From positions 5,046,310-5,110,309 of the forward strand of contig CAVNZM010000008.1 of the NCBI GenBank assembly GCA_963693365.1: DNA of 64,000 nucleotides, read 5' to 3'. The notes beneath the pieces were generated by a model. The model saw nothing but the letters and a program-made list of their open reading frames with translations. It was not told the DNA's origin and did no database searches. A program made the position numbers and the translations under genes. This DNA is from Amoebidium appalachense. Lineage: Eukaryota; Protista; Ichthyosporea. Below are positions 18,973-55,900 of the stretch, piece by piece (positions within the stretch are counted from its first letter, which is position 1; every line of letters starts with the position of its first letter).

Positions 18973-19040
18973 AATGTAGTGAGCCGCTTCACGTGGGGGC
19001 TAGAATTTAGATAATGGGAATCTAGATAATAAGCGTTAAA
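18973..19040 (+). repeat. 68-bp direct repeat, copy 1 (contains the left TIR sequence of the 23767-24360 element)
   Basis: AATGTAGTGAGCCGCTTCACGTGGGGGCTAGAATTTAGATAATGGGAATCTAGATAATAAGCGTTAAA, identical to 23763-23830. Confidence 0.97.
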
Positions 19041-19883
19041 TATGATTGGTGGCTTTTCCACTGTTCTAAAAATGTGAGTGAGCCGCGCACCAGCTTTGTA
19101 GAGCTGGCTGTGGGCGTCGTTCGTTCAGTTCTTGTTTTTAGAGCTAGTGTGTAGGCGAAAAGAAAAAAGGGGAGGGAGCAACGTGATAAGGTACTACTAG
19201 TAATAATTAGGCTGTTTGGGTGTTTTCTTGGTTTGGTGGCACCTTGTGTAAAGGGGCAGAAGCTGAGACCTCAGTCTGATTAGTTGGTGCCTTACGGTTT
19301 GCTCTTGCTTTCTCTTTGGTTTTCGTTTTAGCGTTTGTGTGAGTGTCTGGCATCAGAGGTAAAAGGGATTTGTAGAGTTAGTTGGTTGAACTAAGTTTGG
19401 TGGTGCTACTGTAAAAGAGCACAAACTAGTTGCCTTAGCTAGCTGTCCTTTTTTCTGTTGACTTCTGCAATTGTCACACGAATTCTGGCAACTCAACGTT
19501 AACCAGCTCGTTCTCCTCATTTTCAAGGTTCCTTTTTTCGCTCTAGATATTAATACGACCTTTACATTTGTCTTTTCCCTTCAGTATGTTGTTTAGCTCG
19601 CTAGCGCTGAGGAGTCTTGTAGAGTGAAAAACTACGTAAATTTTGTCTGTCTCTCTGCCTATACAGTCACAGTGAACTTTCTGAACTCCAAGCATTACAA
19701 ATACGTGCTCTGCTTTCCTTGACATGGGCAAGTGAGCCTCTCTTCTTCCCGAGCAGAACTCTCTTATATACGACATTGTGAGTCAATGCACGGTCTCTAC
19801 TAGGTAGTCGAGCTCGGTGTAAACACACGGCCTCCCCCTGTGGGGAGGTGCGGGGGGTGTCACGGTGGCGCGCGTGTGTGTGG

Positions 19884-22412
19884 ATGGACCGTTCGATGGC
19901 AACAAGGATGCCTAGGCCCAGCTTCCACAGATTCGTACCCCCCTGCGCCTCCCGCAGCTGCCCAGCTGAGGCAGGGGGAGGCCACGGTCCACAGCCTTCG
20001 TTCCCGAACACAGCTGCCACGGAACCAGCTGAGTTTGGTTCTTTCCCTCGGAAGTGGTACACCGGTGAGCCCGTAGCCCCCCATGTTAGTACCCCTGGTG
20101 AGGGCGTCACGGGCGCGGCTGAGCCAGGCTTGTTTCCCCATGTGTCTAATGATTTACTTCCACTTCCCCTTTTTGTAGTCCCGCTGTTGCTTGATGGTGT
20201 TAGGTTGTCCTCTCCAAGAAGACGTGGGAGGTTCAACAAGAGATTTGCTGTGTTAAAGTTGGTTAATAGAACCATAGCTGCAATCAACACGTTGTATAAT
20301 GGGCCACCTGGCTCGGTAGAATCTCCTAGGAACGATGTTTGGCACAACATGCACGACACCTCTTCCCAGAATCACACACACTTTTCAACATTTTCCCCTC
20401 CTACCAGCACACACTTTTTTCCCACGCCTTTTCCTAAATCCACGCACTTTTCTCATGCACCCTCACCGGCACAGACACAATCCATTCAGCGAATTTTCGT
20501 TTTTTGCGCGGATATGCGCCGCAGGATCAGCAATGTCCCCTTAGCGGCTGTGTCTGAATCTTTCCCATATTTCAATCACTCAAAAGCTTTCACCCCCATA
20601 GTTGCTGAGCGTATTGCCCTTCCTCCTGAGGGGTTTGGGGCAACAGTTCCGCTCCTAGAGGTCCTTCCACCTGACCTCAAGGAGATGATGGAGAAGCCAA
20701 ACGTGTTGGTGGTGGCGTCAAATCGCACGGGTGACGCGGTCGGACAGCCGAACGGTCACGGAGTTTGCGGGCTTGGGGGCGTGTTGGCAACTGAGAGCAC
20801 CACTGAGGGTGCTGAAGGAGCCCACCCTTTGCCCGGGCGTCCTGTCCATGCATTTGCGTCGCCTGCGGAGTGGCCTATATTGGCTAAGCGTATGTATGTT
20901 TGTGGTATGGTTGCTTTTTCAGAAATTTCGGAGCCCCCAAAGATTATCAATGGTTTATTTGCGGTGGAGAAAGATGAGAAGGAAGACCGTCTTATCATGG
21001 ATGCTCGCCCCATGAATGCAGTCATGATAGACCCGCCCAATCCGAATTTTCCCAGTCCGGCAGATTTGTGTAGTATCATTGTTCCGAAGGACGCAGCGGT
21101 GGTGGTGGCCAAGTACGATTTTTCGAATTTCTACCACCGTTTTCGGGTGCCAGACTGGCTGTCTTGGTACCAAGGGCTTCCGCCGGTTTCGTCTTCAGCA
21201 GTGGGACTGCCGGGTGTCGATAGGTTGTTGTATCCGCGGGTGTTGTCTATGCCGATGGGCTGGAAATGGGCACCGTTTGTCGCCCAACGTTCTCACCAGC
21301 ACATCACGCACCCGCCTTTACGTATCGAACGATGCATCCAATCGAATTATTCACCGGCACATTCCATTACCGACCAATCGGATACGGCACATTTGATCTA
21401 CGTGGATGATTGGGTGGGGGTTGGGTTGGAGGAATCTACTGTAAATTCCGAGATGACGGCAGCCGGGCGCGCTGGAGAGACACACGGATTCGAAATAAAA
21501 CCGTCCAAAACGGTCACGGCGTCACGAGACCACCCGGAGACCGTAGCACTTGGGTTGGCTATAGGACGGGACGGTGTTATTCGACCGGATGCATCACGGT
21601 TGGCGCGGCTACTAGCCGACACAAAGGCGGTTCTGTTCATGCGGGAGGTGGCTCCACGGGCGTTATCTCGTTTGCTTGGGGGCTGGGCGTGGTTGTTGCT
21701 TTTGAATAGAGCTTTATTTTCTGTGTTAGAGGCGAGTTATCAGTTTGCGTTGTCAGCCGGCCAATGTCCACTAACGGCATGCCCAATCCCCTCTGCAGTC
21801 AAGGGGGAGTTGGCCCTGTTGGTGGATTTGGCACCTCTCATTGTGTGTGATTTGACGGCTGCTCCCGCCTCTCTTCTGTTGGCATCAGATGCGTCCACCA
21901 AGGGAGCAGGTGTTTCTATTGCGTCCGTTACGGCTGAGCAATCGTTGACGGCATTAGCACAGTCGGTGTCCAGACCCGGTTATTCCTTCTTGGGGCCTGT
22001 GGACGACACCGGTGAGCTCGTGATTAACGCCCTTTCAGCCGATGAATGTAACGACAGCACGAACCACCCCACGACCGACGACTCTTTTCTGAAAGTAGTT
22101 GACGGTCTGCAGTGGCACCATCCGATATCTACTCCGTGGCGGCACGAAGATCACATCACCATCCTCGAGGGGCACGCGCTGCTATTATCACTACGACGTT
22201 TCACGCGAGCACCACAAAATCACAGCACCAGAGTAGCTCATCTCATCGACAACACATCTTTATTGTTTGCGGTGGCCAAGGGTAGATCGAGTTCACGACG
22301 GCTAAACCATCTGTGCCGGCGGGTGGCAGCACTTGTGTGTGCAGCCGCACTTCGACCGGCGTGGGTGTGGGTCCCTTCTGCCCACAATCCAGCAGACACT
22401 GCCGTCACGTGA
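19884..22412 (+). CDS. Reverse transcriptase-RNase H polyprotein of DIRS/Ngaro/PAT type
   Basis: RT motifs LFAVEK, RLIMDAR, YDFSNFYH, MPMGWKWAPFVAQ and YVDD. RNase H motifs ASDAS, HITILEGHA, LIDN, KGRSSS and WVPSAHNPAD. First ATG is at 19884 (the track starts at GTG 19848). Confidence 0.95.
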   Translation: MDRSMATRMPRPSFHRFVPPCASRSCPAEAGGGHGPQPSFPNTAATEPAEFGSFPRKWYTGEPVAPHVSTPGEGVTGAAEPGLFPHVSNDLLPLPLFVVPLLLDGVRLSSPRRRGRFNKRFAVLKLVNRTIAAINTLYNGPPGSVESPRNDVWHNMHDTSSQNHTHFSTFSPPTSTHFFPTPFPKSTHFSHAPSPAQTQSIQRIFVFCADMRRRISNVPLAAVSESFPYFNHSKAFTPIVAERIALPPEGFGATVPLLEVLPPDLKEMMEKPNVLVVASNRTGDAVGQPNGHGVCGLGGVLATESTTEGAEGAHPLPGRPVHAFASPAEWPILAKRMYVCGMVAFSEISEPPKIINGLFAVEKDEKEDRLIMDARPMNAVMIDPPNPNFPSPADLCSIIVPKDAAVVVAKYDFSNFYHRFRVPDWLSWYQGLPPVSSSAVGLPGVDRLLYPRVLSMPMGWKWAPFVAQRSHQHITHPPLRIERCIQSNYSPAHSITDQSDTAHLIYVDDWVGVGLEESTVNSEMTAAGRAGETHGFEIKPSKTVTASRDHPETVALGLAIGRDGVIRPDASRLARLLADTKAVLFMREVAPRALSRLLGGWAWLLLLNRALFSVLEASYQFALSAGQCPLTACPIPSAVKGELALLVDLAPLIVCDLTAAPASLLLASDASTKGAGVSIASVTAEQSLTALAQSVSRPGYSFLGPVDDTGELVINALSADECNDSTNHPTTDDSFLKVVDGLQWHHPISTPWRHEDHITILEGHALLLSLRRFTRAPQNHSTRVAHLIDNTSLLFAVAKGRSSSRRLNHLCRRVAALVCAAALRPAWVWVPSAHNPADTAVT

Positions 22413-22440
22413 CGTCGTCCCCTCTGCAAAAATCACGCAT

Positions 22441-23379
22441 ATGCTCAATCTCAATGTCACGGCTCCCACAGTGGCGAAATACGACAACGCCTTGAACAAA
22501 TTCGTAGCGTGGTGTGTGGAAGATGGGGTGAGCACCTTCCAGTCGGTAGAGCAGGTGGATAACATGCTTGCGAGCTATGCAGCTGACATGTACGAAGAGT
22601 TGGGGGAGACCCGCAGCGGGCTCGCCCACTGCAAGACGGTGCTGTCAGCCATCCACCATTTCTATCCCCAGTGCAAGGACTCCTTGGTCCTGTCGGCCAG
22701 GGTCCTAAGGGGGTGGGACCATGCTAACCCGACCAATCACCACAGACCACTCCCCTACGACTACATGATTTTGGCAGTGTCGGCTCTGTGGGAATACAAG
22801 ATGCCGCACGTAGCACTCTATCTGTGTATGTCATTCGCAACCTACACCCGGCCGGGGGAGCTCTCGCGGCGCACGGTGGCAGACTTCATTCCTCCGAATG
22901 ATCCACGGTTGATTGAAATCAATGCTCCAGCGGGCAGTGCAGTGTTGCTTCTTCCACGGTCCAAAACGGGCAATCATCAGATGGTGGTGATCCGTGATCC
23001 AGTGTGCTTGCATTTGCTGCAGAAGCTCATGGCAGTGGGTGCATTTCCCCATGGCTCCCGCCCATCCGACCCTCTGTTTCATCCTGGGTACACACCATCG
23101 CTGGTAGCAACTCTTATGCAACAGAGTCTGACGGCTGTGGGCCTGGATAGCGACTTCTCATTGTACAGCACACGGCACGGGGCAGCCTCCACAGCAGCAC
23201 TCAGAGGGGAGGACTATGAGCAAATTCGTATCAATGGTCGGTGGCGTAATTTCACGACGCCTTTCAACCACTACATTGACACGAACAAGGCCATGCTCCT
23301 GGCAATTTCAATGCCCGCTCATCTGTCAGCCCAGGCAAAATCCTTGGCCCGTAGGCCACACATGATTACGCACGATTAG
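22441..23379 (+). CDS. Tyrosine recombinase (phage-integrase family) of the retroelement
   Basis: N-terminal TxxxY...FVAWC helical domain. Catalytic set: R (YTRPGE), K (SKTG), YxxR in place of HxxR (YSTRHG), W (GRW), Y (HYI). Frame is open from at least 22333; first ATG at 22441. May be fused to RT-RH (see findings). Confidence 0.93.
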   Translation: MLNLNVTAPTVAKYDNALNKFVAWCVEDGVSTFQSVEQVDNMLASYAADMYEELGETRSGLAHCKTVLSAIHHFYPQCKDSLVLSARVLRGWDHANPTNHHRPLPYDYMILAVSALWEYKMPHVALYLCMSFATYTRPGELSRRTVADFIPPNDPRLIEINAPAGSAVLLLPRSKTGNHQMVVIRDPVCLHLLQKLMAVGAFPHGSRPSDPLFHPGYTPSLVATLMQQSLTAVGLDSDFSLYSTRHGAASTAALRGEDYEQIRINGRWRNFTTPFNHYIDTNKAMLLAISMPAHLSAQAKSLARRPHMITHD

Positions 23380-27217: not shown

Positions 27218-27453
27218 TGGTTGCCCTTTCTGTGGTTTTCGTGTTGGGAGCGGTCGGAGAGATCACAAGGCAGAGAGGATGGGGTTTGGGAAGTTTTACC
27301 TTAAGTTGTAACCAGCCACCCTTAGCTGTACCCCCAGATAGCCGAATAGCCCAAAAATTTTTTTTTCTTTCTTAACAGCGTTTTCAGTTACGAGCAATTT
27401 ACAACTCTCGTTTATATTGTTCTCACCAGATGAAATTTTCCTGCAAGCTCCCC

Positions 27454-27484
<31 letters not shown>

Positions 27485-27695
27485 AAAAACAAACAAACAA
27501 AAGAGCCCCCTCCTGCCTTTCTTTGTGTGTTGTGCTACCAAGTGGCTGGTTGATGGCTTTTTTTTCCTTTTTTTTTCTTTTCTTTCTTTCTTTTTTTTTT
27601 TTTTTGCTGGAACTGACGTGTTTTTTATCGTGCAGAAACCACCTACCGTGCGCGGTGCGGTTTTTGGAGTATCGAAAATTGCGGCACAAGTGCGC

Positions 27696-29010
27696 ATGGC
27701 TGGCAACTCGTCAACCGCTCATTGGGCACTGCCCTGGAGCAGTTTTAACCCGCTGATGATGGTGAGTGTTTGTGTGTATTACCCATTGTTGTGCTACGCT
27801 GTGTAAACCGTGCACTCAACCCAGTATACGTACACATGCATGGTTTTTGGATTATTTTTGGCAAAAAGAATAAAAATAAAATAAAAATAAAGAAGAAGGG
27901 AAAAAAAAGAAAAAGAAGGAGATGAAGAAAAGGAACACTTTTCATTCAGATTCTCCCAGCGTCACCATGCCCCTCTCCCCCCCCCCCCCCCTCCCCCCCC
28001 CTCCCCCCCCCCCCCCCCCCCCCCCCCACACACCCTCCCGTTCAAGTGAAACAGTATCTGAGTTGGGTTTCGTTAACGAGGGGAATAGGTCGAAACTCGG
28101 GTACTGTGGATGACGTGGGCCCCCCCTGAGGATGGGCTCTGCTTATTATGTATACTCTTGATGTATGGCTTGCATTCTGCATCGTGTTATCCGTTTGTTC
28201 TTGTGTACTTCGTACTTTTTGACGCATTCAAAACCCCCACCACCCTCCCCCCACCCTCCCTCCGTCTCCAGTTTTATCCTCATTCTCTCAGCCCAAAGGC
28301 CCACTTCCTATATTACTGCGACCCTTTGCATCCTCCTTTTTTTTTCAGCGCCATGCTAAGACATAGTCGCCCGCCCTCAGGTATCGGACAGGGAAACACA
28401 GAGCAGCAACATGGCAGGGGTGAGCATGTCCTCCCGTAGCCAACGAGGAGGGGACGGGGGCCTTGGCGGGGGCATGCCCATGAGCCCCATGCACATGGCT
28501 CTACTGCTGCAACAGAACAACCTCCTCCCTCTTTCTTCCTCCCAGCTACTTCCCGCCTCGGGTACAGCCCGCTACGATTCCTACGGCCTGGGCGGCCTTC
28601 CGCAGGCACACAGCTGGGGTCTTCCACCCACTGCCCCTCAGACGCACAACAACAACAACTACTACGACATGCCGCCCGAACAGAGTCACGGGGCCAGCCC
28701 GGGCACGGACAAGCGCAGTGTTTCTTCGATGGCGCAGGACTGCACGCCCGCGGACGCCGGGTATGGGCTGGGCCACGATATGGGCCATGACGCCTACCCG
28801 CTGAATGTTAAGAGGAGACGCAGTAGCCCAAATATGTCTGATGATAGCAGGGCGCTTCTGTATATGTCCCAGGACCCGAGGTCTAGCCAGCATCACAGCC
28901 CGGAGCTTGCTCAGCCGCACAACAGCAACAACCCGTCACCTACGTTCATCCCCGGCACCTTCGGCGATGTGCCTGTGGTCGACGATGGCATTCGCTCGAC
29001 AAGGTTAGTG

Positions 29011-29058
<48 letters not shown>

Positions 29059-29305
29059 GTGTGTGCACGTATAGAAGTGCACGCCGTGGCGGTGGTTGTG
29101 TTTCTGACGGATTGTGTTGGGCTGTGCAGGGACAAGGTGAGGAGGTATCTCGACCAGACCCGCAACCAGCACCCGGGCCCGGGCATGGCCATCTACTACC
29201 CCAAGATAGTCCAGAAGTCCTACGGCAGCGAGAAGAGGTATGTTTCTATCGGCCGTTTTGTGGTGATTGTGTTATGATGTTGTGGTGTGCGGGGTTGCTG
29301 ATGGT

Positions 29306-29343
<38 letters not shown>

Positions 29344-30463
29344 TGCGCGGGTTGCTGATGGTGTGTCTGTGTGTGTTTGCAGGTTCTTTTGCCCTCCTCC
29401 GTGTGTGCAGCTGCTTGGTCCCCGTTGGACCGAACACCGACACAGAGACGACATCACCATGAACATTGAAAAGGTACGACGGGTGGGTTGTGGCTGGAGG
29501 TGCATGTGTTTCTGGTGTTTTGCCTCAAAAAAAGGAAATGTAGTGTTGTTTTTTTCTTCTGTAGCAAGTGCCTTTTGTGCCCCAACTTCTTTTTTTTTTC
29601 CCCGGTTGGATTTGTATTTTTTTGGGGATAGGCCGCGGTACGTGTATAATATTGTTTCCTTTTTTTAGCAGGTGCCTTTGTGCTCCGACATTCTGCCTTT
29701 TGGGTTAGTTTTGTAGTTTTGTGGGGGGTTGGCAACGGAACTTCTTGTTTCTTCTTTCCTTTACTGACATGTTCTTCGGGACAGACACAAACAACCGTGC
29801 GGATGATGTTTGAGCCGGGCAGTGCCCCGCCCTGCAGCCTGGCCCGCACCCTCTACATTGCTGACTCGGACAAGCTCAAGGCCTTCTCCCTCGAGGTCAC
29901 GGTAAGAGCATATGCGGTCTATTCTCTTATTTTTTTTACTTGGCACCTGCTTGTTGGCAAATGTGTTTTTTTGTTCTGTTCGAAAGTCTCGTGTTGGGTA
30001 AACGAAGGCGGATGGATGCATGTCCTTCTTTTACTTTCTTTCTTTTTCTTTCTTTCTTTCTTTCTTTTCTCTTTTATCTTTTTTTTTTTTTGAGGGGGGG
30101 GGGGGGGAGGGGGGAGAGAGAGAGAGAGACGGGGAGAGGGGAGGGGGGGGGGGGGGTTGAGAGGGGAGACTGGGTTATTTTTATAGATTGGATTGGATGG
30201 ACCTGCACGATGTATCTTTGGGACTCAATGAGGCTGTGTGCACACACACATGGTCTCTGCTGCGCACACGGGTACTGACTGGAATCCTGCAGGTGCGGGA
30301 TGAAGGGAGGCGGGAGATGGGGACGTTCAAGACGGGGCAGATCAAGGTCATCTCAAAGCCCAGCCAGAAGCGCCAGACAAAGGCAAACATCGAGAGTAAG
30401 TTTGCCCCCCTTTCCTTTTTTTCTTTCTGTCTTTCTTTCTTTCTTTCTTTCTTCTTCTCGTCC

Positions 30464-30494
<31 letters not shown>

Positions 30495-31709
30495 CTCTTC
30501 TGGTGATGGTGGGTATGTAAGTCATCGGGGATGCTGACTGTTTTTTTTTTGTTTTGTTTTTTTGTTGTTTTTTTCAGTGTGCATTGAGAGTGGGAGTGAG
30601 GTGTGCCTGTTCAGCCGTCTGCGGGCGCAGGCGGCGCATACGCGATACCTGCAGGCCGACCAGCAGAACCTGTTCATTAGCCCCAACCAGTGGTCCTCCC
30701 TGGAGATCACAGCCGCATCAGGTATGTTTCCCCCTGTGCCCATACTCTTTCTCTTATCCCTTGATGATTATCCATTGGCAAACATAGATAGAGTGGGTGA
30801 GAAGGGAGTGAGTGAAAGGGAAGGAGAGGGATAGAAAGAGATGAAAGGAAAGGGGAAAACCACAAGTGATATTTAAGACGTTGCGTCCGCGTGTATCGTG
30901 CACTTCCTCTTCTCTCACAATGATCATCCAAAAGCAGCCATAGTTTCGAGAGTAAGAGGGATGAAAGGAAAGGAAATATCTACATCTTTACATGTCAACA
31001 CACTGTTGTGTACGCTCGTCCTCTTCTCCCTCTAAAGATTATATATCCTAGAGGCAAACACTGACATGTGTATACCCCCTTGCAGTGCACGGTGCACAGC
31101 AGCAGGCCAACCTCGGGCAGGGCCTGCCACCGGCCTCACAGCTTATCGAGTACGGCATGGACATCACCCTGCAGAATGCAGACTACCCCCTGGCCGGCCC
31201 GCGGGTCTTCACCATCTACCCGGCCCGGGGCAAGAACCCCGGCAACATCAACCCCCAGGCCCCCCGTGAACCTGTGGCGTCCTTCCACAAGGTAAGACCA
31301 CTCCCTTTTACTGCATTGTGGATGCATGGTTGCGGGTGAGTTTGGGGCATTTCTGACTTTTGGGGGGGGCTAGGATGGCGGTGGTGGGTGTATTGGCATA
31401 GAGGGGTTTTGAGGGTGGTGGTAGGTGTTTTGACACGGGGGGGGTTTCATAAGATGGTTGTGGTGGGTGTATTGGCATTGGGGGGGGGGGGGGGGGGGGA
31501 TTACGGTGGTTGTTGTAGGTGTGTTGGGTGGCTGACATTGGTGGGTTTCTAGGTGTGCCTGTTCCTCAAGGGCACTACGGACCAGTATCTGGGCATCGTG
31601 GACGATGACGTCAACACGGTCAGTGTCCAGCGCCTGCCCGATGGCTCGGCCTCGGTCCCCGACTGTGCCGTGTGGACCATCATTGCCTCAGGTACGAATA
31701 TTATCTATA

Positions 31710-31807
<98 letters not shown>

Positions 31808-31811
31808 CACA

Positions 31812-31901
<90 letters not shown>

Positions 31902-32299
31902 TCTTTGGAAATAGACTCTTCATACGTTGCTCTGCCCTTATGTTATCCTTTTGTATCCGTAAAATTGTACTCTAGTCAACTATGATGTATAGAGTTTCTA
32001 GCATCCCCCCCTCCCCCCCCCCTCCCCAGTTTCTTGTATTAAACGCATGTCAGCCAGCAACAACAGAGTTGAGCACACATGCATGTTCCCCAGTCATACC
32101 GTAAGTGCGTGGGGAAACAAGTAAAAACATCTGAGCGCCTCTACTCAAACTGGTGGACCGCCGTATGTTGCTGGGCCACATTCTCACTGTTTTTGTGCAG
32201 AGCGCATGGACTTCCCCTTTTACGAGTCTCACGGTCCCGCAATGGAGCCCGTCGCCCCGTGCCCGCAGGTGCTCTCAGTTACCCTTCAGGTATACTATT

Positions 32300-32345
<46 letters not shown>

Positions 32346-32999
32346 TCCCTCCCCAACACACACACACTCACACCCGCCCCCCCCCACACACACACACACA
32401 TACGCACGCCACCACCACCACCATCACCAACACTCACACACACACACACACCCCAAAAAAAAAATGGAAGAAGAAAGAAAGAAAGAAAAAGAAACAGGCA
32501 CTTGCACACGACCATATGTACACTCGTAGTGTTAAGACACTATACATACACATCCACCCCCCCTATCCACACGAATCTCCATTCCTCCCTCCCCCCAGAC
32601 ATCTTTACTTCCATGCAACCGGGCATGGTTGCTCTGTGTCGTGCATCTGTAAGCACATACGCGTTTTTCGCTGCACTGCATTAGTTTGCACACACATCTT
32701 CACCGTTCTGCTCACCTTGCTTGCATAAGCAACCCTGCTCGTCTTTGATCAAGACGGGTTGACCCACCCAAGTTCAGTTGATGCTGCTGTCTGATTGGGA
32801 GCGTCGTATATACGCGGGCTAAGGGGTCGAAACTCAGACGCAATTGATGACTTGGGTCCTCCCTGAGGATGGGCTCTGCTTATGACGCATACTGTGCGCA
32901 TGGCTGATGTTGCATACTTGAATGTTTGCCTTTGCATGTGTCCTGCACCATGCTTCTCATCGTGTATGCGTACTTCGTACTGTGTTCCGCATTCAAACA

Positions 33000-33030
<31 letters not shown>

Positions 33031-33799
33031 CCTCCGCAGCCGCCCCCGTGAAACATGCACAAATGCCTTATGTTTTTTTTTGTGTGTGGCTACATATATG
33101 CTGACTTGGTGCCACATATACAGGGTGATGATCTTGAGCTGCGAGGGGCCGATTTCAGCAGCCAGCACAGCATCTGGTTTGACGATATCCCTGCAGACAC
33201 CGTGTGCAGGTACTGTAGTTTTCACTGTGTGCACCGTGCTCGTTTCACTTCCTCGTCCCCCTCTGACCTCTCTTTTCATGCAGTTGTTCTTCATAGCGCG
33301 TTCTGCATTACATAAACCGTACGGTGTGACCCTCCCATCGTGAAGTTAGTTGTACTTGTGTCGTGTTCAATGTTCCATGTTTCGCAATTAAATCCCTCTC
33401 AAGACATTCTCATAGTGTGGGTGTCCTTCGTACCGTTTTCAGGCAGTACATTGAACCCTCTCCGATCCTCTCTCTCATACTGTGGTTGTACTTTGCACAG
33501 CGTTTCGCGTTTAGACCCGTGTCGAAACCTTCTCATACTGTGGTCAATACTTTACATGTGTCATAATTTGCATATTGAACACTCTAACCCACCTCCTCCT
33601 TCTTTGCAGGTCTTCCACCTCTATGACCTGCCGAATTCCTTCAACATATTCACGTTGTGGGGCGGCGGTTATCCACACAAGAATGCACCGCACGGCCCTG
33701 GCCAAGCAGCACTTGGGCCAGTTCTGCCGCATATTGCTCGTTAGACATTCTGACGGTGTTGTATATCCCACCCTGCACTATCTCACCATACCCCAGTAG
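27696..33799 (+). CDS. CSL: CSL family transcription factor (Su(H)/RBP-J/LAG-1 homologue), 12 coding exons
   Basis: Exons 27696-27761 (tentative), 28381-29003, 29130-29237, 29383-29473, 29785-29901, 30293-30395, 30578-30721, 31086-31291, 31553-31691, 32201-32289, 33124-33209, 33610-33799; all GT-AG and phase-compatible. Motifs QKSYGSEKRFFCPPPC, ARTLYIADSDK, IKVISKPSQKRQ, CIESGSEVCLFSRLRAQAAHTRYL, WTII, LELRGADF..IWF and LVRHSDGVVYPT cover the NTD, beta-trefoil and CTD domains. Alternative start ATG at 28411. Confidence 0.93.
28040..28238 (+). mobile_element. Structured intronic repeat family, subfamily A, 5'-truncated copy
   Basis: Near-identical to the reverse complement of 53091-53278 and 54838-55030. 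Ends GCATTCAAAA-CCCCC. Lies in the tentative first coding intron of CSL. Confidence 0.9.
32597..32998 (+). mobile_element. Structured intronic repeat family, subfamily B, ~400-bp copy
   Basis: Matches the 453-bp unit at 43109-44110 with a few substitutions. Ends GCATTCAAAC and runs into a long C-tract. Lies in CSL intron 32290-33123. Confidence 0.9.
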
Positions 33800-37355: not shown

Positions 37356-39601
37356 GGTGTGTGTCTGTGTGTGTGTGTGTGTGTCTGCATGTGTGTCACG
37401 GTGTTTCTGCATGTGTGTGTGCGCGCATGGACACGTGCCACACATGTTTGAGGGGAAGTGTTTGAGTGAGACCGGGAGCTGTGAGGAAGGGGGTGATCAT
37501 GCCGATGATTTGTTGGGTTGACTCGTATGTCGTTGAGTGACACGCGCACGCGCGCACGCGCGCGCGCACACACACACACACGGACAAACAACTGCCCTGT
37601 GAATAATATGTCTCCTGCACTGGTTATGATGTGAAGTGGGTTGTGTGTGTGGTTGTGATCCAGGTGCATTCTAGATTTTCAGTTTCATTGTGTGTGGCTA
37701 CGAAGACATCCTCCCCCCCCCCCCCCCTCGCGGCCCACACCCTTTGAGAATGGGTTTATCCTAAGGTTGCATACGGTTTGTTGTTCATGTAGCATCTCAA
37801 CATCCACCGTATTATAATCGTGAAGTTGCACTTTGTAGCCTATTCCGCATTCCTGACCAACCCTCCCCCCCCCCCCCCCCCCCGCCCTCTCCCTTCTCAG
37901 GATGGAGAGCATCAATTCACTCCCAACGACATTGATGGTCTGTGGGGATGTGGCCGTGATCTTGTTGTTGCTACGGACCAAACATTCTTTCACGCTACCT
38001 TCTCCCCCACGAGCCCCCCCACCCTTTCATGGACCCCACTCACCACCGTTCCCCCCAACCTACTCGAGGGGGGTCTTACAGCGACCTTCATCGAAGGGAA
38101 GGGGCTGTGCGTGGCCGCCCTGGTCTCTGAGCCGAAGGAGAGAGACCTCATGGCTCCCAAGATTATACCTCTGACCCCCCCTCCCTGTTATCTCATGCGT
38201 TACACCCCTGAGAGTGGGTGGGTGCGAATTTGCAGTGTTCCGCCGGCCAGCGCGTGTCTAAATATATCGGCCAATGGGGTTTATGCAGTTTGGAAAGTCA
38301 TGAAGAGGTTTGGGGCGCCGGAGGAAGGGGAGAGGGGCGACTTTTGGGGTGCGGAGATGAGGGAGGGTGTGGAGAGCAGGCGGCTTACGTGGGTATGTGG
38401 GTGTGTGTGTGGGGGGGGGGGGGGGGGGGAGGGGTAGGGGGGAGGTTGTTGATGGGTGGGTGGGTAGGTGGGTGGGTGGGCGGGTGGGTGTAAACGGGGG
38501 TGGGAGGGGGGGGGGAGGGGGGGGGGGGGAATGATGTAGGCGGGTATGTGGGTGGGGTTTTTTTTGGGGGGGGGGGGGTGGGTGGGTGGGAGGGGGGTGG
38601 GTGGTGGATGGGTGGGTGGGTTTGTGGGTGGGGTTGGGGGGAGGCGGAGGGGGGAAAGGGAGAGGGGGGCGGGAGGGGTTGGTAGGTTGATGGGTGGGTG
38701 GGTTTGTGGTTGGGTGGATGGGAGGGTTTGGGTGGGGTTGAGGGGAGGGGGAAGGGGGTGGGTGGGGTGGGTGGGTGGGTCGGTGTTTGTGAAAAGAGGG
38801 GGGAGGGGGAGGGGGCAGGGAAGGGGTTGGTGGTTGGGTATGTGGGTGTGGGGAGGGGGGCAAAGGGAGGGGGATGAGGGGGGGGGGGGGGGGGGGGGGG
38901 AAGGAGTTGAAGTGCAAAAAGGGTGGGAAAGGCAACGGAAAGGGATGTATCTAACCAGTAAAGAGGAAGGCAGGGTTTGCGTGGGGTGTGGTCTAACAAA
39001 CTCATCAACTCCCCCTCCCCCCCCCCCCGCCTGCCACCCGCCTGCCCGCCCGCCCGAGGAGGGGCCCTGCTTATTAATATGCATGCTCTTTGTGTGGCTT
39101 GCTCTCCGCATCACGTAAGTCCGTTATGAATGTGTGCTTCAGCTTCTATAACACATTCTGATTCCTTCCCCCCCCCCCCCCCCTTCCCCTCTCTCCTCCC
39201 CCCGCCCCCCTCCTTCCCCACCCCCCCCCCCCCCCCCCCCTTTCCCCCCTCCCAGCTGACTGGGCGTGTAAGTGATGCACGTGTGAGCAGTGCTGGGCAC
39301 GTGGTGTACCATGGCAACCACAGCCAAGATCGACCAATCACAACACACCAGGACCTGTGGCTGCTCCAATGGAATGCAGACAAGGCCGAGCAGCCAATCA
39401 GGATCACCGGTGTGTTCTCAGACTAGCCCCCTCCCCCGCCCCCCTCCCCCCTCCCCCCCCCTCCTCCCCCCTCCCCCCACACACACACACAAACATGGAT
39501 GACACCTAGATATCCCCCCCCCCCCCCCCAAAAAAAAAAAAAAAAAAAAAAGTGCCCATGCCCACGGTGTATTTGCAACACTTATAACTCATTTCTACCC
39601 C

Positions 39602-39632
<31 letters not shown>

Positions 39633-40521
39633 ACATACACACACACACCGATCCTATTACATATATCCATTCCTCCCCATCCTCCCCCCATCCTCCCCAC
39701 CCCCCCACCCTCCCGCACGTCTCTGTCTGATTTTTGTGTGTTACAGAGTATCGAAATCAGCATCCATGGCATAGCTTCTATATACCCCCCTCTCCCCCTC
39801 CCCTCCCCCCTCCCCCCCCCCCCCCCCCCCCCCCCCATCCCCACCCCCACCAGATTTCCCACACACCTTCTAACCTCCCCCCCCCCCCCCCCCCCCCCCC
39901 CCCTCACACACACACACCCCCCACCCCAGCCCCCATCGTCATCCCTGTCTCTGTTGTGCAGCCGATGTTATCAAGGAGGCGTATTTTAAATGACCAATAT
40001 TTGGGTGCTTTTCATTGGTTAGACACACACTTGGAATGTGCTGTAAACCAAAGGTGTAACGGGGCCTCCATAGATGTTGCGGGAATTATCTAGGGAGAAT
40101 AATTGATGGGTTCTGATTGGTGGGGACAGGAGGCAACACGTATATTGAGTCGTGGGGGTGGAAGGAGGACGGAGTGAGTCTTTGGGTCAGCATGCTACAG
40201 GTGGGTGGGTGTGGGTAGGGGATGGGGTGTGGGTGGGTGGGTGGGTTGTAGATGTGTGGGTGGGGAGAGAATGAACGAGTGGGCGGGGGAGGGATGGGGA
40301 GGTAGGTGGATGGGTGGGTTTTTTTTTGTGGGGGGGTAGGGAGGGGGGAGGGGGAGGTGGGGGGTTTTGGGGGGGGGGGGGGGGGAGGGGGGAGGGTTGG
40401 TGGGGTTGGGGGTGGGGACTGGTGGGAGGGTGGGGGGGGGGGGGGGGGTTTGAATGGACGAGGGTAGGTGAGTGTGGGTGGGTGGGTGGATGCGGGTGTG
40501 TGGGTGTTTTCATGTGTGTGT

Positions 40522-43001: not shown

Positions 43002-44703
43002 ATGTGCTTTTGTGTCCATGTTTGTGTATGGTTTGTGTGTGCGCGCGCGGGTGTGTGCAGGCACTTATTTATATTCCCCGTGTGTGGTTACCTCATACAG
43101 TATATTTACTGCATACTTGAATGTTTGCCTTTGCATGTGTCCTGCACCATGCTTCTCATCGTGTATGCGTACTTCGTACTGTGTTCCGCATTCAAAACCC
43201 CCCCTGTCTTCTTTCAGAGGTGTCCTTTCAGGACAGACCACTGTGTGGAGACATCTTTACTTCCATGCAACCGGGCATGGTTGCTCTGTGTCGTGCATCT
43301 GTAAGCACATACGCGTTTGTCGCTGCACTGCATTAGTTTGCACATACATCTTCACCGTTTTGCTCACCTTGCTTGCATAAGCAACCCTGCTCGTCTTTGA
43401 TCAAGACGGGTTGACCCACCCAAGTTCAGTTGATGCTGCTGTCTGAGTTGGAGCGTCGTATATACGCGGGCTAAGGGGTCGAAACTCAGACGCAATTGAT
43501 GACTTGGGCCCTCCCTGAGGATGGGCTCTGCTTATGACGCATACTGTGCGCATGGCTGATGCTGCATACTTGAATGTTTGCCTTTGCATGTGTCCTGCAC
43601 CATGCTTCTCATCGTGTATGCGTACTTCGTACTGTGTTCCGCATTCAAAACCCCCCCTGTCTTCTTTCAGAGGTGTCCTTTCAGGACAGACCACTGTGTG
43701 GAGACATCTTTACTTCCATGCAACCGGGCATGGTTGCTCTGTGTCGTGCATCTGTAAGCACATACGCGTTTGTCGCTGCACTGCATTAGTTTGCACATAC
43801 ATCTTCACCGTTTTGCTCACCTTGCTTGCATAAGCAACCCTGCTCGTCTTTGATCAAGACGGGTTGACCCACCCAAGTTCAGTTGATGCTGCTGTCTGAG
43901 TTGGAGCGTCGTATATACGCGGGCTAAGGGGTCGAAACTCAGACGCAATTGATGACTTGGGCCCTCCCTGAGGATGGGCTCTGCTTATGACGCATACTGT
44001 GCGCATGGCTGATGCTGCATACTTGAATGTTTGCCTTTGCATGTGTCCTGCACCATGCTTCTCATCGTGTATGCGTACTTCGTACTGTGTTCCGCATTCA
44101 AAACCCCCCCATGTGTACGTCGTCCCATATATTGAACCCTCCAGCTCTCTCTCTCTCTCCCCCCCCCCCCCCCCCTCTTCCCCCCTCCCCCCCACGTTCA
44201 TACGTCTCACCGTATCATGACCCCCCATGCATCTCTCATACCCTATCTTGAACCCCCCCCTCCCCCCCCCCCCCCTCCCCCGATACATACCTCATACCTT
44301 ATTGTGACCCCCCTTTCATAACTCACGTACCGTATCACGACCCCCCATGCATCCCTCTGATCGCATCTGAACCTTCTCTGCCATAACTTATACCGATCTT
44401 GCCCCCCCTCCCCCCCCCCCCCCCCTCCCCTCCGTGTTCCGCATTCAAACCCCCCCCCCCCCCCTCCCCTTGGTGAATGGGTCGAAACTGGGTACTGTGG
44501 ATGACTTGGGCCCCATTTGAGGATGCATTATTATGCACACTCTTGGTATGGTTTGCATTCTGCTTTATGTTATCCGTTATGATTGTGTATTTCGTCATCT
44601 AGAACATATTCTAAACCTTCTCTCTCCTTTCCCCCTTGCATTCTGCATCGTGTTATCCGTTTGTTCTTGTGTACTTCGTACTTTTTGACGCATTCAAACC
44701 CCC

Positions 44704-52954: not shown

Positions 52955-55900
52955 GATGGGGGGGGGGGGGGGGGGAAGGCGGGGTGTCAGTAATGGGGCC
53001 CTGGGGTAGTGTGTATGTTTGCGTTTCCCCTATGCTCAATTTTGCGCATGAGAAAATGCCCGGGGTTGGGGGGGGGGGGGGGGGGGGGGGTTTGAATGCG
53101 TCAAAAAGTACGAAGTACACAAGAACAAACGGATAACACGATGCAGAATGCAAGCCATACATAAAGAGTATGCATAATAAGCAGAGCCCATCCTCAGGGG
53201 GGGCCCACGTCATCCACAGTACCCGAGTTTCGACCTATTCCCCTCGTTAACGAAACCCAACTCAGATACTGTTTCACTGGGGAGGGGTTCTATTGGGTGA
53301 CTGATTCCTGCAATATGGTGCCATAGAATGTAGGATCATGGCCCCATGGCTTCAGACCGAGCTGCAATCAAAATGCCTGCCTCGCCCCTCTCATTCCCTC
53401 CCCCCTCCCCCCTCCCCCCCCCCCCCTTCCCCCCCTTCCCCCCCTTCCCCCCCTTCCCCCTCCCTCCCGCCCCCTCCCCCAGCGCTCGTGTGTGCAGATG
53501 TGTGCATGTGCCTACCGGAGTTGAGTTCGATCTCATCAGCCAACTAACCACAAGCTTAGGGGCCCACGCACACCCGCAGTCACGCATGCACGCACCCACA
53601 CACGCATCAATGCATGCCCGTACGCAGGAACACAGGCATGCGCACAAGCATCAAAACGCACCATGCACAGGCAGATGCACATGCACACATACTCTCACTC
53701 ACTCACTCACTCCCACCCACACGCCCGCCCGTACGCATGCACGGGCACGCACACACGCACGCACACACGCACAGGCAGACACATGCATGCCCTTAGCGCA
53801 CGGCACATACCTTTGCTCTGGTCAGGATCGAATCTTTGGATGGGTCGTAGGGTTTCTCTTTGGATGGGATTTCAAGAACAGCAGGCACCGGGGTTACATA
53901 TTTGTCCAGCACATAGCGGATCTCATTGGCTATCTGGGGGTGGAATGAAGTGATTAAAAATCGAGGAGCACCACAGCACAACATTAAAGATAGCACCTAC
54001 ATGCTGGTTGGCCAGCGCCACGTTAAAGAATGCACCTACATGCTGGTTGGTAAGAATGACATTATCGAGACACCCTCATGTTGGTTGGTCAGTACCACAT
54101 TATAGAAAGCACCTACATGCTGCTTGATCATGATCAGCAACCCCATGAAAAAGGGGTTTCTTTTAACCCGATTTATGGCCCTTTCGGGGTAGGGAAAAAT
54201 GCTGTTTATTGCGCATTTCGCCATTCATAAAGCGCAAATCTCTTTGGGGTCTTACCCAGCCCGGAATCCCAAAGAAACCCTCATTAAACCAACCACCGCT
54301 TCTCCCATTTAAGCGACTGGGCGCCGAGACACATTCATGACGCCGCTTTGCTACCAATTGTTACACAGCCGATTAGCTCGAAATAGGCGAGAAAAAGAAT
54401 GTCGGCATCGGCAATGTGACCTAACATGATTATGTCTTCTGATTGGTGAGAGACATCTGAGAAATGTGGCTCTCGGCTGCTCATCGCCCAGACGCTAAAA
54501 TGGGAGAAGCGGTAGTTGGTTTAAAGAACACCCCATTAACGACACACTCACATGCTGGTTGATCAGCACTGCATTAAAGACACACATACATACTGGTTGA
54601 TCAGCACCCCATTTAACACACTCTTGCATGCTGGTTGGTTAGCACCCCATTAAAGACACACTTACATGCTGGTTGATCAGCACCACAGCAATATCTGTCC
54701 GTGCAGTGAACTTCTTGAATGCCTCCTCGATATCCATGGCACTGGTGTCTGCACCCCCACAGTCAGCCACATCACACGTGAAAGAAAAGATGCGCCTAGG
54801 GGGGGAAGTAAGAAAATAAGGGGGGGGGGGGGGGGGGTTTGAATGCGTCAAAAAGTACGAAGTACACAAGAACAAACGGATAACACGATGCAGAATGCAA
54901 GCCATACATAAAGAGTATGCATAATAAGCAGAGCCCATCCTCAGGGGGGGCCCACGTCATCCACAGTACCCGAGTTTCGACCTATTCCCCTCGTTAACGA
55001 AACCCAACTCAGATACTGTTTCACTTGAACATGAGTAGGTCACCCGTCTTGATCAGAGACGAGCAGGGTTGCTTATGCAGGCAAGGGCAGTGGGAAAGGC
55101 CGGGGGTTAAAGTTGCAGCAGTAAGCAGAAGCAAGAAAGGGGGATGGGGGAGGGGGAAGGGGGGACAGTGGGGGCAGTAGGGGAAGGCGAGGGGGTGGGG
55201 TTGGGGGGTTGGGGGGGGTGAGGGGTAGTAAAACTACAAGGCAAGGTAGGAGATGGAGAGGGTAAGATAGGCTGCATACATGCCAAAACGGGAACTCGGC
55301 CTGATTTAAAAAAAAATAAAGCAATACACAGGGATGCATACACAAGCACTTGTCGGAGGCATGTATACACATACACGTACACACGTGCACGCACCCCGGC
55401 AGGCACGCAGACACATGCACCCACAAAGATCCACCCTTCCGTTTACCCCACACCTCATCCACCTTCCAATGCACACATGCAGACATAAACGAGGGTGGCA
55501 TGCATGCCAACATATGGTGCAACCACACACAGTGACAGACACCCACCCACCAACCCACCCACCCACCCACCCACTCACCCACCCACACCCACACCCGCAC
55601 CCGCACCCGCACCCACACCCACCTCACACCCACAATCACACACACACACACATACACACGCACACGCACACGCACTCACAACACACGGACATACCCACAC
55701 ACACACACCCACGAAAACACACACAAGCACACCCACCCACCCACCCACCCACCCACACCTAACCACCCACACACCCACACCACTGCCGTGTATATCCAGG
55801 CAAACATACCCTTCTTGACAATCATATAGTTCTGTCTCTTTTTCTGGTCCACGTCACCAACACCAGCCAGCAGAAACCCGGTAACGGTGTCCTGTATGCC

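Follow-up and report, generated by a model that had tools for sequence, protein, structure and literature searches.

The hammerhead ribozymes have been ordered into a scheme of six permutations by Eckert et al (2023; PMC10085705), and the scheme assumes that the step between A9 and G10.1 of the core tolerates at most one or two inserted nucleotides. The type-SGC ribozymes tested there, whose helix connections are those of the motif described below, cleave, and some of them carry one U at the A9/G10.1 step; type SGC was found only in metatranscriptomes and type CSG in two metagenomic sequences. For the Penelope-like retroelements, the paper of Craig et al (2021; PMC8557442) reports no canonical hammerhead in Naiads or in most Chlamys elements, only “core” and “half-core” strings being noted, and gives (C)n as the Chlamys target and MRC1 as an example of the non-autonomous head-to-tail forms that exist. 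The release of monomers by cleavage has been proposed for Penelope-like elements and retrozymes. The motif analysed here lies in a repeated element within a 64-kb stretch of DNA (the whole stretch is called the window), and an earlier note had presented it as a candidate novel structured RNA, either a new self-cleaving motif or a structure recruiting reverse transcriptase (RT). We found that the motif, as read from its sequence, is probably a type-SGC-like hammerhead with a new wiring, in which the core strand is opened between A9 and G10.1.

The element and its copies in the window

The window is eukaryotic, has introns rich in microsatellites and contains exons of CSL, S9 peptidase and V-ATPase F genes; the element copies in these three identified genes are intronic and lie on the sense strand. 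The presence of CSL points to an opisthokont, and part of a cyclin ORF, used in a homolog search for the lineage of the host, gave no match. The coordinates of the copies, which belong mainly to subfamilies A and B, and of the motif parts are given in Table 1. The tandem array has an exact period of 453 nt and consists of one partial unit and two monomers, a C7 run closing each. A C-rich run follows 10 of the 11 regular-expression matches to the element 3' end in the window, and the 5' ends are variable. One more element-type 3' end with a C-run after it was noticed at 40456 on the minus strand. Short head-to-tail monomers, a constant 3' end, variable 5' truncation and a microsatellite target, the features looked for in a Penelope-type element, were all found, and by analogy the host element is likely to resemble a non-autonomous Penelope-type element of the Naiad/Chlamys kind. 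None of the window copies was truncated at the predicted cut site. The cleavage triplet and the base of helix III are damaged in the 5'-truncated B copy of the CSL intron, which is likely to be inactive. Between 44425 and 44698 fragments of different subfamilies adjoin one another, and similar joints are visible in contigs of public sequencing runs; their adjacency suggests that the C tail of an older copy serves as the insertion site of a new one. The multi-exon CSL/Su(H) gene (27400-33300, plus strand; LAG1-DNAbind and TIG_SUH matches) has two element copies on its sense strand. In addition, several degenerate exon-end/splice-donor repeats follow the V-ATPase F exon within its intron (54500-54660 and 53940-54110, minus strand).

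Table 1. Element copies in the window and parts of the candidate split-core hammerhead motif (parts from helix IV downward refer to the first B copy).
Feature	Position	Strand	Detail
Tandem array	43109..44110	+	Partial unit 43109-43204, monomers 43205-43657 and 43658-44110; constant 3' end
Host of the array: intron of S9 peptidase gene		+	Flanking exon matches Pfam Peptidase_S9
Candidate motif, subfamily B, copy 1	43377..43535	+	From descriptor and sequence
Candidate motif, subfamily B, copy 2	43830..43988	+	Identical to copy 1; predicted cut 43902/43903
Candidate motif, subfamily A	54924..55076	-	G10.1 = 55041, U17 = 55006, core strand 54944-54938
Subfamily A element	about 55138-54838	-	Inside intron of minus-strand V-ATPase F gene
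B copy, 5'-truncated	32597..33006	+	Motif 32725-32883; CSL gene intron
A copy, 5'-truncated	28035..28233	+	Without helix IV 5' strand, hairpin V and helix II 5' strand
A copy, 5'-truncated	53091..53278	-	Without helix IV 5' strand, hairpin V and helix II 5' strand
Three nested 3' fragments	44425..44698	+	B-type, third diverged subfamily, A-type; C-runs partly between them
Decayed 3' fragment, further subfamily	39050..39162	+	
Helix IV 5' strand	43377..43388	+	Outer 7 bp 43377-43383; inner CCC 43385-43387; U43388 opposite U43522
Hairpin V	43389..43411	+	Immediately 5' of G10.1; spare U: one in B, zero in A
Helix II 5' strand	43413..43417	+	G10.1 = 43413; pairs with 43476-43480
Helix VI 5' strand	43419..43426	+	Joins distal ends of helices II and I; counterpart of SGC “interaction” helix
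Block S	43440..43453	+	Helix III 5' strand; GUU 43447-43449 (U16.1 = 43448, U17 = 43449); helix I 5' strand 43450-43453
Linker between helices I and II	43454..43475	+	22 nt, palindromic hairpin inside; 18 nt in A; 0-7 nt in most homologs
Block G	43476..43492	+	Helix II 3' strand (C11.1 = 43480); G12-A13-A14-A15.1 43481-43484; helix III 3' strand
Helix VI 3' strand	43501-43508	+	
Helix I 3' strand	43511-43514	+	
CUGAGGA, C3-A9	43515-43521	+	
Helix IV 3' strand	43522..43535	+	Begins directly after A9

The abundance of the element was estimated from contigs of public sequencing runs. Contigs on the B unit numbered 14,734, 9,990 and 5,417 in three DNA runs (X1, X4 and X8, respectively), and those on copy A 10,849 in run X4; the family is very abundant, contig counts not being copy numbers, and the window itself may come from run X1. 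In four runs no variant reaching 3% of contig depth was found inside the three core motifs of B, and the sole such variant in A was a deletion at the C-run edge of the core strand. The 453-nt back-joint, examined for signs of a circular monomer RNA, was present in DNA runs as well as in a presumed RNA run. A C-G form of the U-A helix II pair of copy A, suggested by a contig consensus, was set aside, the partner change being unlisted at 3% and the variants unlinked. Contig loose ends show subfamily A extending further 5' of 55138 (minus strand) in other copies, a starting point from which the autonomous element may be reached.

No autonomous partner, which would be an RT plus GIY-YIG element sharing the 3' end, was found in the 64-kb window. 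Its only RT ORF (19848-22412) was rejected in this role, as no motif copy lies nearby and a recombinase-like ORF follows it. The ORF pair (19848-23379, plus strand) consists of an 854-aa ORF with a weak RVT_1 match, overlapped by a 348-aa ORF without Pfam match which we take, by its motifs, to be a tyrosine recombinase. Repeated terminal stretches near 18980 and 23770 bound the pair, which is probably a DIRS/Ngaro-type retrotransposon.

Architecture of the motif

All the stems listed in the earlier note are present in B, namely the closing stem (43377-43383/43529-43535), the first hairpin (43390-43396/43404-43410), the outer stem (43419-43426/43501-43508), the inner stem (43440-43448/43484-43492), the apical palindrome (43457-43466), the pseudoknot (43413-43417/43476-43480) and the terminal hairpin (43508-43526). 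Copy A was also found where the note had placed it, its extent being 55076-54924 and not 55078-54920. The note had pointed to hammerhead core parts, and CUGAGGA, GAAA and GUU are indeed all there; GGAG/CUCC, offered as a possible stem I, is helix I (43450-43453/43511-43514). Its statement that a canonical stem II cannot be drawn did not hold. Helix II is the very pseudoknot that the note had described, in which G43413 stands opposite C43480 as the G10.1-C11.1 pair adjoining GAAA. Because helix II can be drawn, the motif does not represent a new catalytic class; the remark that it matches no known ribozyme agrees with the Rfam searches given below, and the novelty lies in the wiring of a hammerhead.

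From 5' to 3' the strands are arranged as helix IV (5'), hairpin V, helix II (5'), helix VI (5'), helix III (5'), GUU, helix I (5'), linker, helix II (3'), GAAA, helix III (3'), helix VI (3'), helix I (3'), CUGAGGA and helix IV (3'). The hammerhead core (CUGAGGA, GAAA and GUU) is complete and follows the non-circular order S-G-C. The strand C3 U4 G5 A6 N7 G8 A9 immediately follows helix I, G12 A13 A14 A15.1 lies between helices II and III, A15.1 pairs with U16.1, the NUH triplet is GUU, and helices I, II (with G10.1-C11.1) and III surround the core. The block order S, G, C and the helix VI linking the distal ends of helices I and II are those of type SGC; block C is split, however, and the linker measures 22 nt in B and 18 nt in A against about 3 nt in type SGC. 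The 5' strand of helix II, with G10.1, lies 108 nt upstream of A9 in B, and the A9/G10.1 step is filled by helices IV and V with no linker between them. The placement common to the six permutations, in which the helix II 5' strand begins 0-2 nt after A9, exists in the window copies only as a weaker, wobble-rich option. Helices I, II and III measure 4, 5 and 9 bp in B and 3, 6 and 13 bp in A, and helix VI has 8 bp in both. The two extra helices together with helix II and the A9.G12 pair are predicted to form a four-way junction that reseals the core.

Distant homologs and statistical support

The Rfam comparison proposed in the earlier note returned no match at gathering score in the window and none at E values up to 10 in 43100-44150, which covers the array. 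Metagenome contigs were scanned for the three core motifs, the core and 4 bp of helix III being fixed in advance by the search pattern, and 50 loci were obtained. Two of them, L015 (score 38) and L027 (score 44), have all six helices in different sequences and show no BLAST similarity to the window. The joints between helix IV, hairpin V and G10.1 are of zero length in both, and the score of each was reached by none of 5000 shuffles with fixed motifs. Pairs 3-6 of helix II and pairs 2-5 of helix I differ among B, A, L015 and L027 with pairing kept. The other 48 loci, including L013 (score 30), were set aside as chance matches. By the same descriptor, none of the at least 470 pattern-matched loci listed from viral contigs scored above 30, nor did any of the 36 pattern loci of prokaryote genomes. 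In Rfam, L015 and L027 gave five weak matches with no ribozyme among them. Neither contig has a long ORF, and a large inverted repeat (L015:1-200 and 590-810) flanks the region beside the motif in L015.

These homologs bear on a plain type-SGC arrangement, in which a 2-nt insert would follow A9, a wobble-rich helix II would form between 43524-43529 and 43475-43480, and the upstream pairing with helix IV would be an off-state or a relic. Six consecutive pairs in B and four in A are possible after such an insert, and inserts of 1-2 nt are allowed at this place by the scheme of Eckert (PMC10085705). The downstream helix II is, however, weaker than the upstream one by 2.9 kcal/mol in B (-5.6 versus -8.5) and 4.7 kcal/mol in A (-2.6 versus -7.3), and the G-to-A change of A at position 11.5 is compensated upstream and breaks the downstream pair. 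The option does not exist in the distant homologs, where a helix II directly after CUGANGA is impossible (2 bp in L015, 0 bp in L027) and the energies are -1.2 versus -9.8 kcal/mol for L015 and -1.3 versus -9.1 kcal/mol for L027. We consider the plain arrangement improbable and retain the split core.

The conservation of a multi-stem fold claimed in the earlier note was upheld for the six helices, which recur in L015 and L027, and not for the apical palindrome and the terminal hairpin, which are absent from the distant homologs. The palindrome, taken there for a conserved stem, fits better as a lineage-specific insertion into the linker between helices I and II, and the terminal hairpin around CUGA, also listed there as a stem, as a competing inactive fold. 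The motif could also be read as a permuted HDV-like ribozyme, in which P1.1 would be the GG that follows helix III, P4 the palindrome, J4/2 the GCUAAG stretch and P2 the pseudoknot. The linker of B resembles the J4/2-P2 sequence of HDV, and the terminal hairpin resembles P3/L3. The would-be catalytic C is nevertheless missing from A and from the third subfamily, the linker is only 0-7 nt long in most homologs, the order of the strands is wrong for it, and no Rfam match was obtained at E up to 10. The HDV-like reading was rejected as scarcely credible, since it has neither the conserved J4/2 catalytic C nor the nested double-pseudoknot order and is contradicted by the homologs.

A six-helix descriptor of the split-core motif was composed after L015 and L027 had been seen, and therefore the chance rates that follow are optimistic. 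It scored 35 at 43449, 43902 and 55006, the single other match in the window scoring 26, and 200 dinucleotide shuffles of the window gave nine matches on both strands, the best scoring 29. When the core motifs were fixed and the remainder was shuffled, a score of 35 was reached in 1 of 5000 cases for B and in none of 5000 for A. The compensatory changes between A and B that the earlier note had stressed do occur, but they are thin. Of the 42 pairs compared across the three window copies, 3 have both partners changed, 16 of 500 shuffles equal that, the closing stem and the first hairpin are invariant, and the A-versus-B covariation is not significant by itself. MAFFT misaligned helix I in this three-copy comparison, and the A-U/G-C swap there was found separately. 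Because so few pairs change and shuffles can match them, the window alone is suggestive and not decisive. The folding z-scores (-2.4 sense and -3.2 antisense for B; -1.3 on both strands for A) left the strand undecided; the host-sense strand is the folding one by its core letters and the U-A/U-G changes, as the note had held.

Predicted cleavage and comparison with known systems

The nested minimum-energy fold predicted for B hides CUGAGGA within the terminal hairpin. Release of the core takes 10.5 kcal/mol in B and 6.0 kcal/mol in A, and helices I and II of B regain about 10.8 kcal/mol as free duplexes, with pseudoknot penalties ignored. The burial of CUGAGGA may be an off-switch or may silence the element family. 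Further weak points of the window family are the U.U first pair of helix IV and a helix I of only 4 bp (B) or 3 bp (A). GUU is a slower cleavage triplet than GUC or GUA. It is conceivable, although unlikely, that the split-core wiring is ancestral and real and that the RNA no longer cuts here, or cuts very slowly, being kept as a folded signal that recruits RT or protects the RNA end. The hairpin that competes for the core strand (-9.4 kcal/mol in B and -6.8 kcal/mol in A), the U.U at the junction, the short helix I and a C3-to-U change in the third-subfamily fragment fit such a loss, and copies on the sense strand of introns would favour low activity. Against it, all the core positions are intact in subfamilies with diverged stems, the contig pile-up on B has no common core variant, and Naiad-2_Movir, read by eye in the viewed part of its source, has the same U.U first pair.

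The sequence evidence makes it fairly probable that the motif is an active self-cleaving split-core hammerhead serving a likely non-autonomous Penelope-type (Naiad/Chlamys-like) retroelement. In such a ribozyme helix IV would stack on helix V and helix II on the A9.G12 pair, so that G10.1 would come to its normal place though it lies 108 nt upstream, and the active site of the solved hammerheads would be retained. By analogy to known hammerheads, G12 would act as the base and the 2'-OH of G8 as the acid, and cuts would be expected after U43449 and U43902, freeing 453-nt monomers from a tandem transcript. The monomers might be circularised or used as multimers, and the reverse transcriptase of an autonomous element would copy them, with priming at a nicked G-run annealed to the C7 of the RNA. 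Copying of this kind would account for 3' ends that are constant and lie at C-runs, for 5' truncation at varying points and for the C7 where monomers meet. A copy whose truncation falls within the motif has no helix II and should do no harm to the host pre-mRNA; those at 28035 and 53278, being without helix II, should be inert.

The Naiad and Chlamys consensi of the Craig 2021 supplement were read by eye and not computed, from displayed matches only. Four CUGANGA variants were viewed at 49 of 62, 21 of 25, 21 of 23 and 34 of 43 places; a match split by a line break would not be seen. Nine of 54 Naiad consensi (File S5) were seen to end in the split-core wiring with G10.1-C11.1, namely 3_Chem, Amil, Aacu, Anas, 2_Movir, Plae, 4_Dst, Obim and Ovul, which make six independent families, and weaker forms were seen in Bfor, where helix I has 2 bp, and in Esco, where helix II is degenerate. 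The U.U first pair of helix IV in Naiad-2_Movir is that of the window motif. Intact type-CSG hammerheads appeared at the 3' ends of the nematode and spider Naiads Parc, 1_Nbra, 2_Nbra, 3_Nbra, Hcon and Smim, and an SGC-like one with an uncertain helix II in Lpol; by the same reading, the helix connections of these forms are those of the split-core motif, opened elsewhere. In the places viewed, the split-core motif was seen neither in Naiad-4_Chem nor in the Chlamys consensi. The ostracod Naiads 1_Dst to 3_Dst, and probably some spider Naiads, have a conserved CCCCUGA(C/A)GA at their 3' ends, not parsed as a hammerhead. As far as these sources describe them, both Naiad and Chlamys share with the window element the 5' truncation, head-to-tail copies and microsatellite target, and non-autonomous derivatives are known there; Naiad 3' UTRs carry the same split-core motif by eye. 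The window element differs from either in pairing a Chlamys-like (C)n target with a Naiad-type motif.

The split-core form was not described in the literature covered, which was mostly open-access and included a small part of the Eckert 2023 supplement, nor in passages of Forgia 2023, Perreault 2011 and PMC13725137. We lean towards regarding it as a seventh natural hammerhead topology, an active ribozyme whose catalytic strand is interrupted at A9/G10.1 and closed again by a perfect four-way helical junction. Along with intact CSG forms it would serve as the standard ribozyme throughout the Naiad clade, from ctenophores to octopus, which would mean that Naiads never lost the hammerhead. In the present host it would be carried by an element that targets C-runs and by which the sense strand of many introns receives cleavage sites. 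Such a motif would break the stated assumption of the six-permutation scheme that CUGANGA and helix II are inseparable. It offers a possible answer to the apparent lack of ribozymes in Naiads, in that earlier searches would have used the wrong strand order, and the non-circularly permuted hammerheads, met before in anonymous environmental RNA, would gain a place in named animal retrotransposons. The CSG examples seen by eye in Naiads are many more than the two published. Furthermore, a core with a built-in four-way junction would be a new attachment point for ribozyme switches.

In the discontinuous CLEC2 hammerhead the insertion occupies a helix loop and is not known to interrupt the A9-G10.1 step. 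This ribozyme (PMC6765202) resembles the split-core motif in having its parts far apart, with a long insertion between two halves. The pseudoknot-containing hammerhead of Zhan et al (2024; PMC11300833) similarly combines the core with an added helix and a pseudoknot, but its A9, G10.1, C11.1 and G12 are on one strand and its extra helix lies outside the core strand. The non-LTR retrozymes (bioRxiv 10.64898/2026.07.22.740005; PMC6765202) likewise consist of short non-coding monomers in tandem, each with a single hammerhead, and are tied to Penelope-like elements, whereas their hammerheads are of type I, circularly permuted and built on a three-way junction. The closest likeness is to the SGC ribozymes (HRIMA-1 and its variants; PMC10085705), which share the block order S-G-C, the full core and the pseudoknotted helices I and II and were found in metatranscriptomes, unlike the window motif, which lies in a genomic repeat. 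In SGC and CSG, as in the split-core motif, the helix I 5' strand is linked to the helix II 3' strand and an extra helix joins the other ends; their helix II 5' strand, however, comes 0-2 nt after CUGANGA, whereas that of the split-core motif lies 95-115 nt upstream with helices IV and V in the step (PMC10085705).
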